This document shows positions 46,033 to 53,497 of a stretch of DNA of 64,000 bases, one piece after another. A program made the position numbers and the translations under genes. This DNA comes from Escherichia virus TH44. The DNA lies in sequence record MT446415.1; one strand, written 5' to 3'. The notes under the pieces are model-generated. The model was not told the DNA's origin, searched no databases, and worked only from the letters and a program-made list of their open reading frames with translations. The number at the start of each line of letters is the position of its first letter. The stretch's first letter is position 1.

Positions 46033-46060
46033 AGGGACTCTTCGGAGTCCCTTTTTATTT
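46033..46060 (+). terminator. intrinsic terminator gggactcttcggagtccc + T-run
   Basis: GC hairpin followed by tttttatttt. Confidence 0.6.
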
Positions 46061-46142: not shown

Positions 46143-46511
46143 ATGAAAATCAATCTTAACTCATACATCAAAGGTAAAGACCACGACGGCTACAAAGCAA
46201 TCGAAACTAAAGAGATGCAATGGCACTTGTATAAAGAACAATTTGAATTCGTTTCTTGCATGACTCCAGAAGGTCCTTCTGATGACTTCTCCTGGAAAAT
46301 TATGGTAACAAACTTTTTTACTGGCGACACATATGAATTGAAAACTTTGATTCTTGGTAAGATTCGTTGTAAGACCTATGAAGATGAAGAAACTGGTTAT
46401 TCTGAAGATGTTACATGGTATCAAAATGGTCGCACTACTGCTGATGATTTGATTGAAAAAATGAAAGCTAAGGGTGAATTAAATTTAGATAATTGGATTA
46501 AAGTCGCATAA
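46143..46511 (+). CDS. hypothetical protein (122 aa)
   Basis: ORF at end of cassette. Confidence 0.5.
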   Translation: MKINLNSYIKGKDHDGYKAIETKEMQWHLYKEQFEFVSCMTPEGPSDDFSWKIMVTNFFTGDTYELKTLILGKIRCKTYEDEETGYSEDVTWYQNGRTTADDLIEKMKAKGELNLDNWIKVA

Positions 46512-46582
46512 AACAGTTTACTTTGGTACAGGTTATGATATTATAAACCTGTACCAACAAATGAAAACAACTGGAGAATAAA
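46511..46582 (+). promoter_or_regulatory. early promoter with hairpin-embedded -10
   Basis: GTTTAC 46516-46521; 8-bp inverted repeat ggtacagg/cctgtacc around ttatgatattataaa; ctggagaataaaATG. Confidence 0.5.
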
Positions 46583-46948
46583 ATGAACTATATCAACTTT
46601 GAACGCAAATATGTTTCTATCGGTGCAGTTGGTTCTAACGAGTATATGAGCTTATGGGAACATAAAAATGGTTCAGTATGTGAAATTGACCATTGGGTTT
46701 CTCCTGACTACGTTTATATGCGATTTGAAAATGGTATCACTCTTTCAATCACTAAAGAAGGTTCTAATTTTAAAATTGCTTTAGATGATGATTTCCGTCA
46801 ACGTGATTTGGGTACTCATCCTTGCTGGAATGGTGTTAATCGCAAGCTTCTGGTTAAAACTTGGATTCGTCATATCCTGAGCAACAAAGCAAAACCTGAA
46901 CACCTGGAAGCAATCTTTGATGTAGTTCTTAATGAATTTGATATCTAA
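46583..46948 (+). CDS. hypothetical protein (121 aa)
   Basis: ORF. Confidence 0.5.
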   Translation: MNYINFERKYVSIGAVGSNEYMSLWEHKNGSVCEIDHWVSPDYVYMRFENGITLSITKEGSNFKIALDDDFRQRDLGTHPCWNGVNRKLLVKTWIRHILSNKAKPEHLEAIFDVVLNEFDI

Positions 46949-46984
46949 TCTTAAATGGGGCGAAAGCCCCTTGAGGAAAATACT

Positions 46985-47272
46985 ATGTTTATGACTACTT
47001 ACTTTGATACACGTAAAAATTTCTGTGAAGTTGTTTTCTCTAAAAAAGGCCCTAATGTTCCTGCCGGGTGTGAACCAACTAAAGAATCCATTAAAAACTA
47101 TGTGGATGTAGTTTGCCCAGTTGAATTCAGGACTGTTAATGGACGTGATACGCTGGCAATCACCAAGCTTAGACGCGACATTGATATTGACCCAATTGCA
47201 GCACGTGAAGTCAATTCGTCTGATATTAATGGCGGTAATGTTAAATCACACGGTTTCCGGATGAGGTTCTAA
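46985..47272 (+). CDS. hypothetical protein (95 aa)
   Basis: ATG 46985 after gaggaaaatact; upstream hairpin ggggcgaaagcccc. Confidence 0.5.
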   Translation: MFMTTYFDTRKNFCEVVFSKKGPNVPAGCEPTKESIKNYVDVVCPVEFRTVNGRDTLAITKLRRDIDIDPIAAREVNSSDINGGNVKSHGFRMRF

Positions 47273-47466
47273 TGCAACTATTCTTATCACAAACTGTCCA
47301 GTTAAAAGGCATAGGTATTCCTGGAATGATTTCTAAGGTCTTGCCTGCTTTTCAATTAGGCAATATTTCCATTAAAGAAGCATATGCAGTCCTGTGGGTT
47401 GACGGAACAGAAGACGTTCGCATGGGTGGTGAGTTGTCTGTAATCAAATGTTTAAAGCGAGGATAA
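47272..47466 (+). CDS. hypothetical protein (64 aa)
   Basis: ORF. Confidence 0.45.
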   Translation: MQLFLSQTVQLKGIGIPGMISKVLPAFQLGNISIKEAYAVLWVDGTEDVRMGGELSVIKCLKRG

Positions 47467-47467
47467 T

Positions 47468-47680
47468 ATGTTTAAGAAACTGATTCAGAAAATTTTGGGA
47501 ACAGAAATGGTTGAAGTTACTTATCGTGTAACAGACGTGAGCCCATGGGCCCGAAATATTGAACCATATACTAAAACAATTAAAATGCTGAAATCTGACG
47601 GTGGATTGTCTATTAAAGACCGTCTACCTGGTTATGGTCATTGGGCTGATGTAGAGATTATCAGCGTCAAAGATATTTAA
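47468..47680 (+). CDS. hypothetical protein, tandem paralog 1 (70 aa)
   Basis: about 45-50 percent identical to next ORF (EMVEVTYRV, SIK.RLP, IISVKD). Confidence 0.55.
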   Translation: MFKKLIQKILGTEMVEVTYRVTDVSPWARNIEPYTKTIKMLKSDGGLSIKDRLPGYGHWADVEIISVKDI

Positions 47681-47689
47681 GGAATCTTC

Positions 47690-47902
47690 ATGATTAAGAA
47701 ATTATTTAAAAAGCTGTTTGGCTTGGAAATGGTTGAAGTGACTTATCGTGTTATTGATTTATCACCGCCATATGCTTGCGATGAAGATGCTATTAAAACT
47801 GTTGTTATGCGAAAAACATATCGCGGGCGGTCAATTAAAGAAAGATTGCCAGACCATGGCATGTGGTATGCAACCAAGATTATCAGTGTCAAAGATGTCT
47901 GA
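47690..47902 (+). CDS. hypothetical protein, tandem paralog 2 (70 aa)
   Basis: see paralog 1. Confidence 0.55.
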   Translation: MIKKLFKKLFGLEMVEVTYRVIDLSPPYACDEDAIKTVVMRKTYRGRSIKERLPDHGMWYATKIISVKDV

Positions 47903-48353
47903 GTTAGAAATCAGAAGCAATTTCCCATGGCCGTCATGTGCATTAAGTAACTTTGCTAAATGGCCTTTTGTTATGGATGGCATCCAGTTTGGAGGTCTTG
48001 AAGGCTTCCTCCAAGGGTGCAAGGTGAGAAATAATGAACAACAAAAACGTATATTTGGGATGTCCGGATTGGCCGCCCAGCAAAGTGGAAGAGCTTATGC
48101 AAGAGCTGCGGACCGTGGGACGCTTTTCTGGCTTGGAATTCCCTTTTCAAGATACTCTACATCATGGAAAGAGTTGTATACAAATGCATATTTTGAAGCA
48201 GCGCTCCAAAACAAAGGATTCCGCGACGCATTACAAGCCACAAAGGGCAAAGTTTTAAAGCATTCGATGGCGAGCCACCTTACTGTTCATGATACAATAT
48301 TGACTGAACAAGAATTTATTGACATACTTAACCAATTGAGAGATGCATTATGA
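47895..48353 (+). CDS. NADAR/YbiA-like domain protein (putative ADP-ribose or N-glycoside hydrolase)
   Basis: LSNFAKWPF..DG..F...EGFLQGCK resembles NADAR core motif (SNFA.WP...DG....SEHYFQA.K); ATG 47895 overlaps previous stop. Confidence 0.5.
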   Translation: MSELEIRSNFPWPSCALSNFAKWPFVMDGIQFGGLEGFLQGCKVRNNEQQKRIFGMSGLAAQQSGRAYARAADRGTLFWLGIPFSRYSTSWKELYTNAYFEAALQNKGFRDALQATKGKVLKHSMASHLTVHDTILTEQEFIDILNQLRDAL

Positions 48354-49174
48354 AACCCGTTATTTTAACAGATATTGATGGCGTATGTTTGTCATGGCAG
48401 TCTGGCTTGCCTTATTTCGCCCAAAAATATAATTTACCCCTGGAACATATCCTTAAGATGATTCAGGATGAAAAATTTGTGACCCCTGGTAAACTGTTCA
48501 ATTGTGATGAAGAGTTGGGAGCACAGTTGATTGAGAAATATAACTGTTCAGATTTTATTCGCTATTTGTCTCCTTACGCGGATGCGTTAAGGGTTATTAA
48601 TAACCTCAAAGAGCAATATGATTTTGTGGCTGTTACGGCTCTGGGTGATTCCATTGATGCCCGTCTGAATCGTCAATTCAACCTGAATGCTTTGTTCCCT
48701 GGTGCATTTAAAGAAGTGATGATGTGTGGTCATACAGCCTCTAAAGAAGAGTTATTTCAGAAAGCGAAGACCAAATATAATGTCGTTTGTTATATTGATG
48801 ACCTTGCACACCATTGCGACCATGCGAGTGAAATCCTTGAAGTCCCGGTTTATTGGATGGCCCGTGGTGAACGTGATGCTATTCCTAAAACAGCTTCCAA
48901 AGTTTTTAATTGGGACGATGTAGCCGGACAGCTTAAACTGAAACACAAAGATGAACCAGTCAAACCAGAATTCACCCCTGATGAACTCCGTAAACTGGAA
49001 GAGCTGTTTCGTGAAACTCGCCGTCTTCAACAACAAATGCAGCAAGGCTGGCAGCCAGGTCAACCATGGACCCCTGGATATAATCCAGCATATCCATATC
49101 AATATGGCCCACGCGTAGGTACCGGCATTGAATATTGGTACAATCAACCGACCGGTGGCCAAGGGGGTAATTGA
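48350..49174 (+). CDS. HAD-superfamily hydrolase, likely 5'(3')-deoxyribonucleotidase-like, with Q/P/Y/G-rich C-terminal tail
   Basis: N-terminal ILTDIDGV (DxDGV HAD motif I); C-terminal 60 aa low complexity. Confidence 0.5.
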   Translation: MKPVILTDIDGVCLSWQSGLPYFAQKYNLPLEHILKMIQDEKFVTPGKLFNCDEELGAQLIEKYNCSDFIRYLSPYADALRVINNLKEQYDFVAVTALGDSIDARLNRQFNLNALFPGAFKEVMMCGHTASKEELFQKAKTKYNVVCYIDDLAHHCDHASEILEVPVYWMARGERDAIPKTASKVFNWDDVAGQLKLKHKDEPVKPEFTPDELRKLEELFRETRRLQQQMQQGWQPGQPWTPGYNPAYPYQYGPRVGTGIEYWYNQPTGGQGGN

Positions 49175-49452
49175 TGTTTGTCGTTCATACTATTTCAGAC
49201 CGTGGTCCAGTTACCACGATGGATTACGGTCATGTTAACCAGTTTATTCGTCATGTGAATCATAATTACTCGTTTGATATTAATCCGGCTAAAGATAATC
49301 CTGTTTGGCGTGAATGTGTTGAGCAAGGATTTATCTATGTTCACTTCATGACTAAAATGAAACCGGATGGGGCGACTAAATTTGTGTTCACTTATCACAA
49401 ACGCCTGGATTTGCTTTTGGAAGATGTGGCATATAATAGAGCCAACGACTAA
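49171..49452 (+). CDS. hypothetical protein (93 aa)
   Basis: ORF. Confidence 0.5.
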   Translation: MMFVVHTISDRGPVTTMDYGHVNQFIRHVNHNYSFDINPAKDNPVWRECVEQGFIYVHFMTKMKPDGATKFVFTYHKRLDLLLEDVAYNRAND

Positions 49453-49455
49453 GAG

Positions 49456-50994
49456 GTGATTATGATTTTAGATATTTTAAATGAAATTGCTGCAACCGAT
49501 TCCACTAAAGAGAAACAAGCTATTCTGGAATCGTATTCTGACAATGAAACCCTCAAACGTGTGTATCGTTTGACATATTCCAAAGGCATCCAGTTCTATA
49601 TTAAGAAATGGCCTAAACCTGGTACAACGTCTCAAAGCTTTGGCATGTTGAATATCGATGATATGCTTGACTTTATCGAATTTACATTAGCCTCTCGTAA
49701 ATTAACAGGTAATGCTGCAATCGAGGAATTATCTGGCTATATTGCTGATGGTAAAAAAGCAGATGTTGAAGTCCTGCGGCGTGTTATGATGCGTGACCTG
49801 GAATGCGGGGCATCCGTATCCATTGCAAATAAGGTTTGGAAAGGTTTAATTCCTGAACAACCGCAGATGCTCGCTTCTTCCTATGATGAAGCCGGTATTG
49901 CCAAGAACATTAAGTTCCCGGCCTTTGCACAATTGAAAGCCGACGGCGCTCGGTGTTTTGCTGAAGTTCGTGGCGATGAGTTAGATGATGTTCGATTGTT
50001 ATCCCGAGCTGGCAACGAATACCTCAAGCTTGACCTCCTTAAAAAGGAATTGATTGAAGCTACCCGTGAAGCGCGTGAGAGACATCCTGAGGGCGTTTTG
50101 ATTGACGGCGAGTTAGTATATCATGAACAGAAAGTAGCTCCCCAGAATGACGGTTTGGGCTTCCTTTTTGACGATTCAGATGAGATTGCCCCTGCACAAG
50201 AAACTGCGGAATCAAGAACCTTTTCAAATGGTCTGGCCAACAAATCATTGAAAGGAACTATTTCTGCAACAGAAGCTGCTTGTATGAAATTCCAGGTTTG
50301 GGATTATGTTCCACTAATTGAAGTCTATTCTGATGTTAAGATTCTCAATCCATTGAAATACGATGTGCGTTTTGCTGTTCTGGAAAAGATGATTGCAGAT
50401 AACGTGGTGCTGCATGGTTTCGACCGCATGATTCTGATTGAAAACCATGTTGTTAACAATCTTGATGAAGCGAAAGTTATCTATAAGAAATATGTTGATG
50501 AAGGTCTTGAGGGTATTATCCTTAAGAATATGGCATCGATTTGGGAAAACAAGCGCTCAAAGAACTTGTATAAGTTCAAAGAAGTAATTGACATTGCAAT
50601 GGAAATCATTGGATATTACGAGCACGATAAAGACCCGAATAAGATTGGTGGTGTTGTGCTTCGTTCTTCTTGTGGTAAGATTACAAATAACTGTGGTTCT
50701 GGTTTTAAAGACACAACTCAAGTTAAAGATAAGAAAACCAAAAAATGGGTTACTATTCCGATTGAGGAGCGTCATGAAATGGACCGTGAAGCCTTGATGG
50801 TTAAAGCTCGTAAAGGTGAATTGGTTGGAATGATTGCCGACTGTGAATGTAATGGTTGGTTGACTTCCGAGACTCGTAAAGATAATACGGTTGCATTGTT
50901 CCTGCCGATTATCAAAGGGTTCCGTTTCGATAAAGACCATGCAGACACATTCGAAGATGTATTTGGCGACTGGTCAAAGACCGGGTTAAAATAA
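49456..50994 (+). CDS. 30: ATP-dependent DNA ligase
   Basis: 512 aa; high similarity to T4 ligase (LKADGARCFAEVRGDELDDVRLLSRAGNEY, KFQVWDYVPL). Confidence 0.95.
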   Translation: MIMILDILNEIAATDSTKEKQAILESYSDNETLKRVYRLTYSKGIQFYIKKWPKPGTTSQSFGMLNIDDMLDFIEFTLASRKLTGNAAIEELSGYIADGKKADVEVLRRVMMRDLECGASVSIANKVWKGLIPEQPQMLASSYDEAGIAKNIKFPAFAQLKADGARCFAEVRGDELDDVRLLSRAGNEYLKLDLLKKELIEATREARERHPEGVLIDGELVYHEQKVAPQNDGLGFLFDDSDEIAPAQETAESRTFSNGLANKSLKGTISATEAACMKFQVWDYVPLIEVYSDVKILNPLKYDVRFAVLEKMIADNVVLHGFDRMILIENHVVNNLDEAKVIYKKYVDEGLEGIILKNMASIWENKRSKNLYKFKEVIDIAMEIIGYYEHDKDPNKIGGVVLRSSCGKITNNCGSGFKDTTQVKDKKTKKWVTIPIEERHEMDREALMVKARKGELVGMIADCECNGWLTSETRKDNTVALFLPIIKGFRFDKDHADTFEDVFGDWSKTGLK

Positions 50995-50997
50995 CAA

Positions 50998-51018
50998 AAG
51001 GGCTTCGGCCCTTTTTTA
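50998..51018 (+). terminator. intrinsic terminator gggcttcggccc + T6
   Basis: GC hairpin followed by tttttt. Confidence 0.6.
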
Positions 51019-51052: not shown

Positions 51053-53113
51053 ATGTCTGAACAATTAAATGAACTCTTTGACAAATATATCGAAGCCTTC
51101 GGTTATCCTGTCATTAATATGAATCCAAAATACAAGGTCCCACAGGTTTGGCAATTCGGTGTTCCTGGGACCAATTCTCTTATGGCCCGTTTGATGCAAT
51201 TCACGGGCAAAGAAACAGTTAAACAATATAAACGTGGTGATGCAATTGCCGAGGTATTCCTGCTCTCCGGGACTTCACATGGCCATGCTGTTCCTCTGAA
51301 GGGTGGTCTAGGTGAAAAACCTCTTGATGCGATTAACCTGATTTTTGTTACAGTCTGGGAAAGCATTAAACTAGGCAAACCTGATGTAGTCTTGTTCCGT
51401 TTCCCATCCAAAAAGATGAAAGGACAAGACCAAGCTGTTATTCGTATTATGAATCGACTGATTCAAATGAAAACTAGCGGACGTTATCATGTTCTTCCGA
51501 ATGCTTCTGGCCTCGGTAAAAAGAACGCTTATGTAATTATGTACAAAAAGGGTGTTGACCTGCTTTCGGTTGATGGTATGCCACCGGTCCCTGAGAAATA
51601 TCAAAAAGTTGAAACTAAAGTTGGCGATGTATTCACCAATAAAGATACAGGTGCACAAGTCTCCAAACAAGAAATCGCAGCCGAAGTTCTGATTGATGCA
51701 GCAAACAAAAAGACCGATGCTGCTGTTGCCCAGAAAACTAAAATCAGTCGCCGAGCTATTGCACAAGCCCAGTATGCTCCAAGTGATTCCGTGCCAGACG
51801 GTTGGGACGAAATTGATGCAGAAGCTGCTAAGTTTAGTCGACCGGCTACGGCAGAACTTATCGATGATTATGAAGAACTGGAAATTTTTGTTCGACCTTC
51901 CGAAACGAATACTATGGCTCGTATGCGCGCAGCAGATGAGGCTATGCGAGCAAATGGTGTTTGGAAAGAAGAAATTCGTGTTGAAGACTCTGACCCAATT
52001 TTTAACCGTATGCATCGTGAACTTAAACGTGCCCCTGTTGGCAGTATGAAGCAGATGCAGATTTTTGCCGAATCATGTGCAGAGATTCTTAACCTTCGCA
52101 AAGCTGCATTTATCGAAAGAAAAATGAATGATGCACCTCCTAACCTGGATGCAGCCACTTATGCAGCCTCGCTCTGGGAAAAAGAATACACAAGCGCCAT
52201 TCGTGTTGCAGTTAAAGACTTTGCCGAAGAAGCATCAGAAAATACTCTTAATTTCACAGCAGGGTATACTGACAACCGTTTCCATTATGGCCAGCGAGAA
52301 GCAATCGCAGATTATTGTGGAGCAAACTATGCCGATATTAATAATTATTTGATGGGCAAATATTATGAAGAAGAAGCTGAATTCCTAAATCTAGACAGAG
52401 TTGTCGAAACAATTAAGGAATTGGATTCGGCCTTTGAAATTGGACATAAGTTGCCGCCGAATACAACTCTTTGGCGTGGTCAATATTTAAACGTTCCTAC
52501 ATTTGATAAAATTAAGAAATCTAAATTATTTTATTTCAGGAACTATGTATCAACGTCGTTTAAACCGATTATCTTTGGTGGCTGGGTGGCGAACGTTGCT
52601 ATGGCTGCAGTTCATCAGGACTATCGTGATGGGACATCTTTCCAGGCTGATGACGAAATTGTTTTACCAGATATGCCGGATGCACGCCGCGACCACGTAA
52701 TGATGCATGTTGGTTGGAAAATTTCCGGGGCGGACTTAATTAACGTAATTGTTCCTGGGGAATTGTCGAGCAACCCGTCCGAGCAGGAAGTTATTCTTCC
52801 TCGTGGGACCGTAGTTAAGATTACCAAAATTACTGATGCTTCGTATCAAGGAAACGCGAACGTCAAAATGCTGGAAGCTGATATCCAGACTACGGACCAA
52901 CTGGATGAAAATGCAGTTATCTATGATGGCGATGTGTTGATGGAAACTGGTGAGCTTGTCGTTTATCAGGGCGAGGAACCAGAAGAGCCAGTAGAATCTG
53001 TTGACTTTGCATCGTTTGCATCCTCTGGGGTAACGAAGAAAGTCAATCAAGGTCTTGGTATTCTTGCTAGTTGTATTAATTTGGAAGCTATTCCTCCTAA
53101 ATTCCTTTCGTAG
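51053..53113 (+). CDS. alt: Alt ADP-ribosyltransferase (packaged; modifies host RNA polymerase)
   Basis: 686 aa; size and position as T4 Alt (682 aa). Confidence 0.85.
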   Translation: MSEQLNELFDKYIEAFGYPVINMNPKYKVPQVWQFGVPGTNSLMARLMQFTGKETVKQYKRGDAIAEVFLLSGTSHGHAVPLKGGLGEKPLDAINLIFVTVWESIKLGKPDVVLFRFPSKKMKGQDQAVIRIMNRLIQMKTSGRYHVLPNASGLGKKNAYVIMYKKGVDLLSVDGMPPVPEKYQKVETKVGDVFTNKDTGAQVSKQEIAAEVLIDAANKKTDAAVAQKTKISRRAIAQAQYAPSDSVPDGWDEIDAEAAKFSRPATAELIDDYEELEIFVRPSETNTMARMRAADEAMRANGVWKEEIRVEDSDPIFNRMHRELKRAPVGSMKQMQIFAESCAEILNLRKAAFIERKMNDAPPNLDAATYAASLWEKEYTSAIRVAVKDFAEEASENTLNFTAGYTDNRFHYGQREAIADYCGANYADINNYLMGKYYEEEAEFLNLDRVVETIKELDSAFEIGHKLPPNTTLWRGQYLNVPTFDKIKKSKLFYFRNYVSTSFKPIIFGGWVANVAMAAVHQDYRDGTSFQADDEIVLPDMPDARRDHVMMHVGWKISGADLINVIVPGELSSNPSEQEVILPRGTVVKITKITDASYQGNANVKMLEADIQTTDQLDENAVIYDGDVLMETGELVVYQGEEPEEPVESVDFASFASSGVTKKVNQGLGILASCINLEAIPPKFLS

Positions 53114-53467: not shown

Positions 53468-53497
53468 AAAAGGGACCTTCGGGTCCCTTTCTTTTTA
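53461..53497. terminator. bidirectional intrinsic terminator at early/late convergence
   Basis: hairpin agggaccttcgggtccct flanked by A-run upstream and T-run downstream; serves plus ORF 53177 and minus gene 54. Confidence 0.6.

Follow-up and report, generated by a model that had tools for sequence, protein, structure and literature searches.

The two overlapping genes at 47895-49174 of the window, that is, the whole stretch of 64,000 nucleotides from Escherichia virus TH44 (MT446415.1) analyzed here, are best explained, with good probability, as AdfN and an independent haloacid dehalogenase (HAD)-type phosphatase which lie together in a conserved T4-like gene block. The first open reading frame (ORF 1) is in all likelihood the counterpart of T4 gene 30.3, adfN, and from its sequence the product is predicted to be a DNA guanine-ADP-ribose glycohydrolase countering DarTG1. 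The anti-DarT role of AdfN is already known, having been demonstrated earlier for T4.

The region corresponds to the conserved block 30.4 - 30.3 - 30.2 - 30.1 - 30 - alt of T4-like phages, the phage here being a Gaprivervirus with a DNA identity of 96% to phage CJ20. The genes of the block are co-directional on the plus strand and their stop and start codons overlap. Two tandem 70-amino acid (aa) paralogs of T4 gene 30.4 come first (47468-47680 and 47690-47902; phrog_2042, E 2e-35 and 2e-27, respectively); they share 54% identity with each other, and most relatives have a single copy. The second paralog is translationally overlapped with adfN, whose start overlaps its stop by 8 nt. adfN itself runs from ATG 47895 to TGA 48351-48353 and codes for 152 aa, and the ortholog of gene 30.2 (ORF 2) runs from ATG 48350 to TGA 49172-49174 and codes for 274 aa beginning with MKPVILTDIDGV, its ATG overlapping the ORF 1 stop in the sequence ATGA. 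The product of ORF 2 consists of a HAD phosphatase domain (aa 1-200, 48350-48949), supported by phrog_420, identity to T4 and the AlphaFold2 (AF2) model, and a C-terminal extension (aa 201-274, 48950-49174), which is low in pLDDT past aa 230 and is absent or variable in many homologs. Further downstream on the same strand are the gene 30.1 ortholog (DUF3045; 49171/49174-49452; PF11243, E 4.5e-18; phrog_2054, E 1.9e-35), which probably starts with the ATG at 49174, overlapping the stop codon of 30.2, gene 30 for the ATP-dependent DNA ligase (49456-50994; PF01068, E 3.5e-28; phrog_114, E 4e-157) and alt for an Alt-like ADP-ribosyltransferase (51053-53113; PF03496, E 2.3e-19; phrog_802, E 3e-225). 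An earlier note on this DNA had placed both reading frames at these positions of the plus strand, just upstream of ligase and Alt, and this is correct, with one small gene, 30.1, intervening. Judged by homology, both ORFs are genuine genes and not chance frames, because ORF 1 matches PF08010 and phrog_652, ORF 2 matches phrog_420, and the identities to the T4 proteins are 86% and 66%, respectively. Both genes are annotated as 'hypothetical protein' in the closest GenBank relatives, an NCBIfam search gave no match for ORF 1, ORF 2 or gp30.1, and a scan for promoters and terminators gave counts not above those of shuffled sequence.

The placement of ORF 1 in the NADAR superfamily and of ORF 2 in the HAD superfamily rested on profiles and structure models. 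ORF 1 matches PF08010 over 138/138 model positions (E 2.1e-64; 215.9 bits, the cut-off being 36) and phrog_652 (E 3e-50), and aligns without gaps to T4 gp30.3 of equal length, 22 of the 152 residues being different. The NADAR-type core which had been read from the sequence, LSNFAKWPF...DG...EGFLQGCK, is found as quoted, and the alignment confirmed that the predicted catalytic residues E36 and K43 (T4 numbering), within the motif E-G-F-L-Q-x-x-K, are kept; they align with E48 and K55 of YbiA. Among 48 aligned AdfN homologs, E36, H123 and L/S/N/F at 17-20 are invariant and K43 is conserved in at least 90%. The HMM search proposed in the earlier note gave a divided answer: ORF 1 belongs to the phage NADAR clade PF08010, but it does not itself match the Pfam NADAR model (PF08719) at E<=1, although 16 of the 48 AdfN family members do match that model (best E 1.5e-7). 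The AdfN family profile reaches the YbiA structure 2b3w with E 0.0044, and hhalign against E. coli YbiA gives a probability of 93.7% (E 2e-7). In addition, the AF2 model of ORF 1 (pLDDT 93.7, pTM 0.89) finds 2b3w (E 6e-5), 8bau and 8bat as its top three Foldseek matches with probabilities of at least 0.99, all others being at 0.06 or below, and these are exactly the three solved NADAR structures. H123 falls in the predicted strand 120-122/123 of the model, and the predicted helix at 138-151 is intact in ORF 1, which ends in LNQLRDAL.

The counter-defence role which the earlier note had proposed for a phage NADAR against DarT is established experimentally for the T4 ortholog. T4 AdfN (gp30.3) is a DNA guanine ADP-ribosylglycohydrolase which is both required and sufficient to overcome DarTG1 (Johannesman et al. 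2025, PMC11825919); without adfN, neither T4 nor T2 forms plaques on DarTG1 cells, and the purified enzyme strips ADP-ribose (ADPr) from DarT1-modified DNA (PMC11825919). RB69 is rescued by ectopic AdfN and only partially by the E36A and K43A variants, the inactive RB69 allele being without the C-terminal helix, and C-terminal truncation lowers the activity (PMC11825919). All NADARs assayed in vitro, the T4 protein included, hydrolyzed guanosine-ADPr and not thymidine-ADPr (PMC11125620). The statement that NADARs undo the guanine mark of DarT toxins holds for DarT1, which is the only maker of the NADAR-removable mark, but not for DarT2, which modifies thymidine and is not countered by AdfN (PMC11825919). 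Full activity of AdfN-T4 is reported to need a Tevenvirinae factor and to occur only during Tevenvirinae infection (PMC11825919), and in uninfected cells AdfN-T4 gives no relief from DarT1 toxicity (PMC11825919, PMC11125620). In a T4 transposon screen on DarTG1 (HIDEN-SEQ), gene 30.3 has a log2FC of -7.25 (adjusted p 0), and gene 30.4 is the only other significant gene.

The window resembles T4 in E36, K43, H123, the C-terminal helix, the gene order 30.4-30.3-30.2-30.1-30 and the overlapping codons, while it differs in the 22 substitutions, for example 'TVH' versus 'TKD' at 129-131, and in the additional 30.4-like paralog directly upstream. The DarG1/DarT1-associated NADARs (BC4488 family; 8bat) and YbiA (2b3w) share with ORF 1 the fold (Foldseek probability 0.99-1.00, TM 0.56-0.68), the Glu/Lys catalytic pair and, as predicted for ORF 1, the release of ADP-ribose from guanine bases of DNA, whereas the identity is only 15-19%. 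The acidic residue of the last strand, Asp in BC4488 and Glu in YbiA, is replaced by His (H123) in the phage clade, and AdfN, unlike DarG1, has no N-terminal extension and no linked DarT gene. The AdfN of the window phage is a stand-alone NADAR of the phage clade with a histidine in the last strand. In the proposed mechanism, the host toxin DarT1 would ADP-ribosylate guanines of the phage DNA and so block its replication, and AdfN would hydrolyze the N-glycosidic bond, by which ADP-ribose is released and the DNA is restored. This mechanism, demonstrated with the orthologs of T4 and T2, is carried over to the window phage because of the 86% identity, the equal length and the intact catalytic residues.

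The product of the second gene is a HAD protein, as had been read from its N-terminal motif, and it is highly probable that it is a phosphatase. It matches phrog_420 (E 8e-79) and is 66% identical to T4 gp30.2 overall and 85% over the HAD domain, whereas the match to Pfam HAD_2 stays below the gathering score (E 0.049, with 14.2 bits where 23.8 are required). All four HAD motifs are present: motif I D8-I-D10-G-V, motif II T96, motif III K132 and motif IV D150-D151. D8, D10, K132, D150 and D151 are invariant and T96 is conserved in at least 90% in sets of 41 and of 27 homologs; in the distant members both Asp residues of motif I and the Lys of motif III are invariant, and at least one Asp of motif IV is invariant or nearly so. 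The second Asp of motif I (DxD) indicates phosphoryl transfer and not dehalogenation. W16, R108 and N111 are specific to the gp30.2 family, which is conserved across T4-like phages, comprises 1435 cluster representatives and, by its profile matches, forms a divergent branch of the HADs that has no Pfam model of its own. The AF2 model has a pLDDT above 90 over aa 1-190 with a Rossmannoid HAD fold, and a four-helix C1 cap (about aa 14-68) is inserted between motifs I and II. The tail has one predicted helix (210-232), followed by a Q/P/G/Y/W-rich stretch which ends in IEYWYNQPT, with a pLDDT of 49-72 past aa 230; many homologs of 197-220 aa are without this extension. In T4, gp30.2 occupies the same position between 30.3 and 30.1, but its C-terminal tail has diverged (274 versus 278 aa in a gapped alignment), only IEYxxNxPT being shared. 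A literature search for 'gp30.2' gave no paper, and the NARP3 paper contains no link to HAD or NADAR.

It had also been suggested that ORF 2 is of the 5'(3')-nucleotidase type, and this stands in part: the nearest characterized relatives of the family are the 5'(3')-deoxyribonucleotidases (NT5C), but ORF 2 itself does not match the NT5C model PF06941, and the assignment to a subfamily is not firm. PF06941 has matches at E<=1 to 6 of the 41 close homologs (best E 0.0029) and at E<=0.01 to 41 of the 91 distant members (best E 4.2e-10), no other model matching as many of the latter; 5 of the 91 also match phrog_2643 'deoxyribonucleotidase', and the best Foldseek match of the ORF 2 model is from the NT5C family. 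Compared with these enzymes (cdN/mdN; 2jao, 2i7d, 1mh9 and 3bwv), gp30.2 has in common the HAD core with a four-helix cap and the sequence DxDGV with an aromatic residue and SGL after it ('DGVLADFESGL' versus 'DGVCLSWQSGL'), while the identity is 16-21% and gp30.2 has an extra 75-aa C-terminal extension. Judged by its helical cap, the enzyme would act on a small phosphomonoester, for which a (deoxy)nucleoside monophosphate, the NT5C type of substrate, is the best candidate; a nucleotide substrate for gp30.2 is put forward tentatively, at somewhat less than even chances. The protein is probably a HAD phosphatase which depends on Mg2+ and has a closed helical cap, and it would be co-transcribed with adfN but separate in function, with no part in the anti-DarT mechanism.

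Of the 69 viral loci with a gp30.2 homolog, down to 37-45% identity, 68 have the ligase gene downstream in the same orientation. This adjacency, together with weak matches to the polynucleotide-kinase family PHROG 415 (E 0.001 for ORF 2, and 3 of the 91 distant members), favors a gp30.2 which serves the DNA ligase as a DNA 3'-phosphatase or nick-healing enzyme and readies ends for gp30. Such a role is unlikely, however, because a closed four-helix C1 cap, as predicted for gp30.2, typically belongs to HADs acting on small molecules, whereas T4 Pnkp, a DNA/RNA 3'-phosphatase, is capless, and because 30.2 is dispensable in T4 and the ligase is essential. Moreover, when distant loci were searched with a closer subset of the 91-sequence distant alignment, only 12 of the 80 loci showed the ligase link, and several of these were marginal. 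HAD-ligase adjacency is thus possibly inherited synteny, and a functional coupling was set aside. The neighbors enriched around the distant members, namely PhoH, DUF6433, clamp loader and carbamoyltransferase, are uninformative on the substrate.

A nucleotidase of phage can also act in counter-defence, for which phage T5 provides a precedent: the Kongming system, which uses dITP as a signal and is triggered by phage dNMP kinases, is blocked by T5 Dmp, a dNMP 5'-phosphatase. gp30.2 might similarly deplete a nucleotide precursor or signal, e.g., dAMP for the dITP signal of Kongming. T5 Dmp, too, is a capped HAD phosphatase encoded by a phage, its motifs (WDLDGT, ICTAR, SK and MIDD) come in the same order as those of gp30.2, the gp30.2 family is nearest to the NT5C deoxyribonucleotidases, and T4 has a dNMP kinase, gp1. 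Nevertheless, this role too is improbable. A general dNMPase would work against the salvage of host dNMPs by T4, and the gp30.2 profile is not significantly similar to T5 Dmp, with an hhalign probability of only 2.9%, so the two belong to different HAD families and homology between them was rejected, the likeness being limited to generic HAD motifs. T5 Dmp has no Pfam match, and its gene, unlike 30.2, is located in the first-step-transfer region. The main text of the Kongming preprint, searched for 'phage T4', T-even and Tevenvirinae, mentions none of these. There is only a small chance that gp30.2 is a counter-defence or pool-editing nucleotidase by analogy with T5 Dmp and Kongming, or that the duplicated 30.4-like gene is a Tevenvirinae-specific AdfN helper.

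Whether the adjacent genes form a pair is a separate matter. The earlier note had named the NADAR and HAD genes as a pair, and a functional module of the two would have gp30.2 act as the Tevenvirinae factor which potentiates AdfN, or as a processor of the released ADP-ribose or a phosphorylated derivative. The ATGA overlap of the adfN stop and the 30.2 start, present in the window, in T4 and in all loci with an AdfN identity of at least 85%, is in its favor, as is the restriction of full AdfN-T4 activity to Tevenvirinae infection (PMC11825919). Against this, T4 30.2 insertions at 71 sites are neutral on DarTG1 in HIDEN-SEQ (log2FC -0.12, p 0.61, versus -7.25 for 30.3). In LB versus M9 the log2FC of 30.2 is -0.10, the gene being non-essential, and it is dispensable in each of the T4 conditions covered. 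Across loci, only 22 of the 80 with AdfN have a HAD gene within 5 kb, leaving 58 with no gp30.2 homolog at this distance, and only 33 of the 69 with gp30.2 have AdfN within 5 kb, the other 36 being without AdfN nearby; adjacency is thus limited to a part of the T4-like phages. The module is therefore very unlikely, and gp30.2 as an AdfN helper, rejected on the DarTG1 data and the co-occurrence counts, is largely refuted for T4. Since T4 30.2 has no effect on DarTG1 and the two genes co-occur only partially, it is probable that they are functionally independent. A redundant helper role of 30.2 may be masked in the T4 screen, and the tight translational coupling of adfN and 30.2, seen in all close relatives, could reflect co-regulation toward a shared purpose.

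The earlier note had also proposed that the NADAR enzyme could process the phage's own ADP-ribosylation chemistry. A role of this kind, in which AdfN would control or undo modification by Alt, ModA or ModB, is the least likely reading. In its favor, alt is close by, about 2.7 kb downstream of adfN. Against it, T4 alt insertions are null on DarTG1 (log2FC -0.01), the activity shown for the NADARs tested, the T4 protein included, is on guanosine-ADPr in DNA and not on thymidine-ADPr (PMC11825919, PMC11125620), many T4-like genomes have adfN some 60 kb away from the HAD-ligase-alt block (for example, locus L050 versus L100 of IMG/VR contig 2974718797), and the retention of adfN is fully accounted for by the DarTG1 phenotype (PMC11825919). 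alt is context and stands outside the AdfN mechanism.

The value of the preferred reading, AdfN beside an independent HAD phosphatase, is mainly one of annotation, in that ORF 1 can be named adfN, with a role demonstrated in T4. Because adfN is intact, the window phage is predicted to resist E. coli carrying DarTG1, and this prediction bears on host range and on the choice of phages for therapy. As for gp30.2, it represents a large and conserved phosphatase family with intact catalytic motifs which is dispensable under the T4 conditions covered.

ORF 1 (47895-48353, + strand, 152 aa) and ORF 2 (48350-49174, + strand, 274 aa) are found exactly at the coordinates of the earlier note, together with the motifs LSNFAKWPF...EGFLQGCK and ILTDIDGV as quoted there. 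The source phage is T4-like and infects E. coli, and the 2.1 kb around the two ORFs has 265 phage matches and shares 96% identity with Escherichia phage CJ20 (Straboviridae, Tevenvirinae, Gaprivervirus). The order of the genes, cd - 31.2 - 31.1 - 31 - rIII - ... - 30.4 (x2) - 30.3 - 30.2 - 30.1 - 30 (ligase) - alt, is that of T4 gene for gene, and the sole departure at this locus is an additional 30.4-like paralog upstream. While most relatives such as VR20 have a single 30.4 copy, the window has two in tandem (47468-47680 and 47690-47902, + strand), which encode 70 aa each and are 54% identical to each other; the second overlaps the start of ORF 1, which lies 8 nt ahead of the stop of this upstream gene. 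The ATG of ORF 2 overlaps the stop of ORF 1 (ATGA), and the stop of ORF 2 is in turn overlapped by the next gene. The small T4 gene alt.1 of the ligase-alt interval is missing in the window, where this gap is 58 bp. Terminator-like, GC-rich strong hairpins with T-runs are seen at 46033-46052, upstream of the gene string 46143-50994, at 50996-51015, directly after ligase, and at 53469-53490, past the ORF downstream of alt.

ORF 1 is AdfN, the ortholog of T4 gp30.3, with which it has 86% identity in a gap-free alignment of the full 152 aa; in Pfam it scores E 2.1e-64 against PF08010, "Bacteriophage protein GP30.3". The ORF 1 protein itself does not reach the Pfam NADAR model, but the placement of its family with NADAR is solid. 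PF08719 is matched by 16 of 48 homologs (best E 1.5e-7), a profile of these 48 has a single meaningful match among PDB sequences, E. coli YbiA (E 0.0044), and hhalign against YbiA gives a probability of 93.7% (E 2e-7). Furthermore, the AlphaFold model (pLDDT 93.7) matches the three solved NADAR structures at a probability of at least 0.99, that is, YbiA (2b3w), a Phytophthora NADAR (8bau) and a Geobacter DarG1-type NADAR (8bat), all remaining PDB matches having a probability of 0.06 or less. E36 and K43, the positions mutated in T4 AdfN, are present, and so is H123, the histidine defining the phage clade, in place of which YbiA has Glu and DarT1-linked NADARs have Asp; across the 48 aligned sequences E36 and H123 never vary, while K43 is conserved in at least 90%. 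ORF 1 also keeps the C-terminal helix, the loss of which cripples the RB69 AdfN allele.

The mechanically called ORF around adfN begins at an upstream GTG (47748-48353, + strand, 201 aa) and overlaps a 30.4-like gene, whereas the alignment of the 48 homologs favours the ATG at 47895 as the start; one published in vitro study used a T4 gp30.3 construct listed as "residues 1-208", although the annotated protein has 152 aa. Within adfN, 48034-48258 (+ strand, +1 frame) is the counterpart of the annotated internal T4 ORF 30.3' (74 aa). Of 14 homologs (85-99% identity), 13 retain a stop-free stretch of 76 codons in this frame, although not always the ATG upstream of it; the counterpart may be a genuine overlapping gene or a side effect of codon usage.

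T4 30.3 was renamed adfN by Johannesman et al., Nat Commun 2025 (PMC11825919), who reported that T4 and T2 without adfN are unable to plaque on cells carrying the DarTG1 defence, that ectopic AdfN-T4 restores RB69, that the E36A and K43A mutants rescue only in part, that C-terminal truncation reduces activity, and that purified AdfN removes ADP-ribose from DarT1-modified DNA; DarTG2 is not countered. In an independent in vitro study, all the NADARs tested, including the T4 protein, hydrolysed guanosine-ADPr and not thymidine-ADPr (PMC11125620). In addition, 30.3 insertions were lost in a T4 transposon screen on DarTG1 hosts (log2FC -7.25; bioRxiv 10.1101/2025.11.20.689424, supplementary table), and the NADAR phage clade had been delineated bioinformatically in prior work. 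The counter-defence role proposed for the NADAR ORF, shown for the T4 and T2 orthologs and predicted for ORF 1, is therefore correct but not new, since the function of T4 AdfN is already published. The only other significant gene in the DarTG1 table is 30.4 (log2FC -1.79, adjusted p 0.014), which could reflect a polar effect on adfN or could make 30.4 a candidate for the Tevenvirinae helper factor that is reported to potentiate AdfN.

The evidence speaks against adfN and 30.2, called a pair in the earlier note, as a functional pair. In the T4 transposon data 30.2 is neutral on DarTG1 (log2FC -0.12, 71 sites, p 0.61), as is 30.1 (-0.01), and 30.2 is neutral also on K-12 and for LB vs M9. The two genes are often apart in IMG/VR: a gp30.2 homolog lies within 5 kb in just 22 of 80 AdfN loci, which are the close relatives and a few others with 42-45% identity, and AdfN lies within 5 kb in only 33 of 69 gp30.2 loci, directly adjacent in 15. 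In several complete T4-like genomes adfN is about 60 kb from the HAD-ligase-alt block. ATP-dependent ligase follows just downstream in 68 of the 69 gp30.2 loci. This adjacency is regarded as inherited synteny and not as proof of a shared pathway, because it does not hold among more distant members of the family, whose neighbours are uninformative. In environmental viral contigs from IMG/VR these distant HAD genes frequently adjoin PhoH (15 of 105 flanking ORFs), DUF6433 and clamp-loader genes, not ligase. A NADAR enzyme servicing the ADP-ribosylation made by Alt itself finds no support, alt having a log2FC of -0.01 on DarTG1 in T4 and the tested NADARs acting on guanosine-ADPr and not thymidine-ADPr.

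ORF 2, judged from sequence and model, is a predicted capped HAD phosphatase, the gp30.2 ortholog. It matches phrog_420 (annotated as of unknown function) at E 8e-79, and T4 gp30.2 with 66% identity overall and 85% in the first ~200 residues; Pfam gives only a sub-threshold HAD_2 match and NCBIfam none. The four HAD motifs, D8-x-D10, T96, K132 and D150-D151, are conserved in 41 homologs (T96 in at least 90%, the others invariant). The AlphaFold model, confident for residues 1-190, has a Rossmann-like core with four helices inserted between motifs I and II as a C1 cap, and Foldseek matched it to 107 HAD structures at E<=0.001, led by the cytosolic 5'(3')-deoxyribonucleotidases of mouse and human, together with a deoxyribonucleotidase-like protein of staphylococcal origin. 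An exhaustive profile search found 1,435 cluster representatives of the family at E<=0.001, and Pfam NT5C, exceeding every other model, is matched by 41 of 91 more distant members (best E 4e-10). Motif I has a second Asp, which suggests phosphoryl transfer. In HAD enzymes a closed cap goes with a small substrate, and the modelled cap would point to one here. Taken with the Foldseek and NT5C matches, these features make a (deoxy)nucleoside monophosphate the best, still tentative, guess for the substrate. The final ~75 residues (201-274; 48950-49174, + strand) form a variable, mostly low-confidence extension which is missing from many homologs and in which Q, P, G, Y and W abound; its end motif G-I-E-Y-x-x-N-x-P-T, which recurs in T4 and in some homologs at 50-55% identity, may serve as a docking peptide. 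T5 Dmp, a dNMP 5'-phosphatase reported to block Kongming defence, is also HAD but distinct from gp30.2; its gene (124-858, - strand, of the T5 locus L152) has clear HAD motifs (WDLDGT, ICTAR, SK, MIDD) but the protein has no Pfam match.

ORF 1 carries every defining feature that can be tested on sequence and belongs to a characterised family. ORF 2 belongs to a phage family inside the HAD superfamily that is known but uncharacterised and probably nearest to NT5C.
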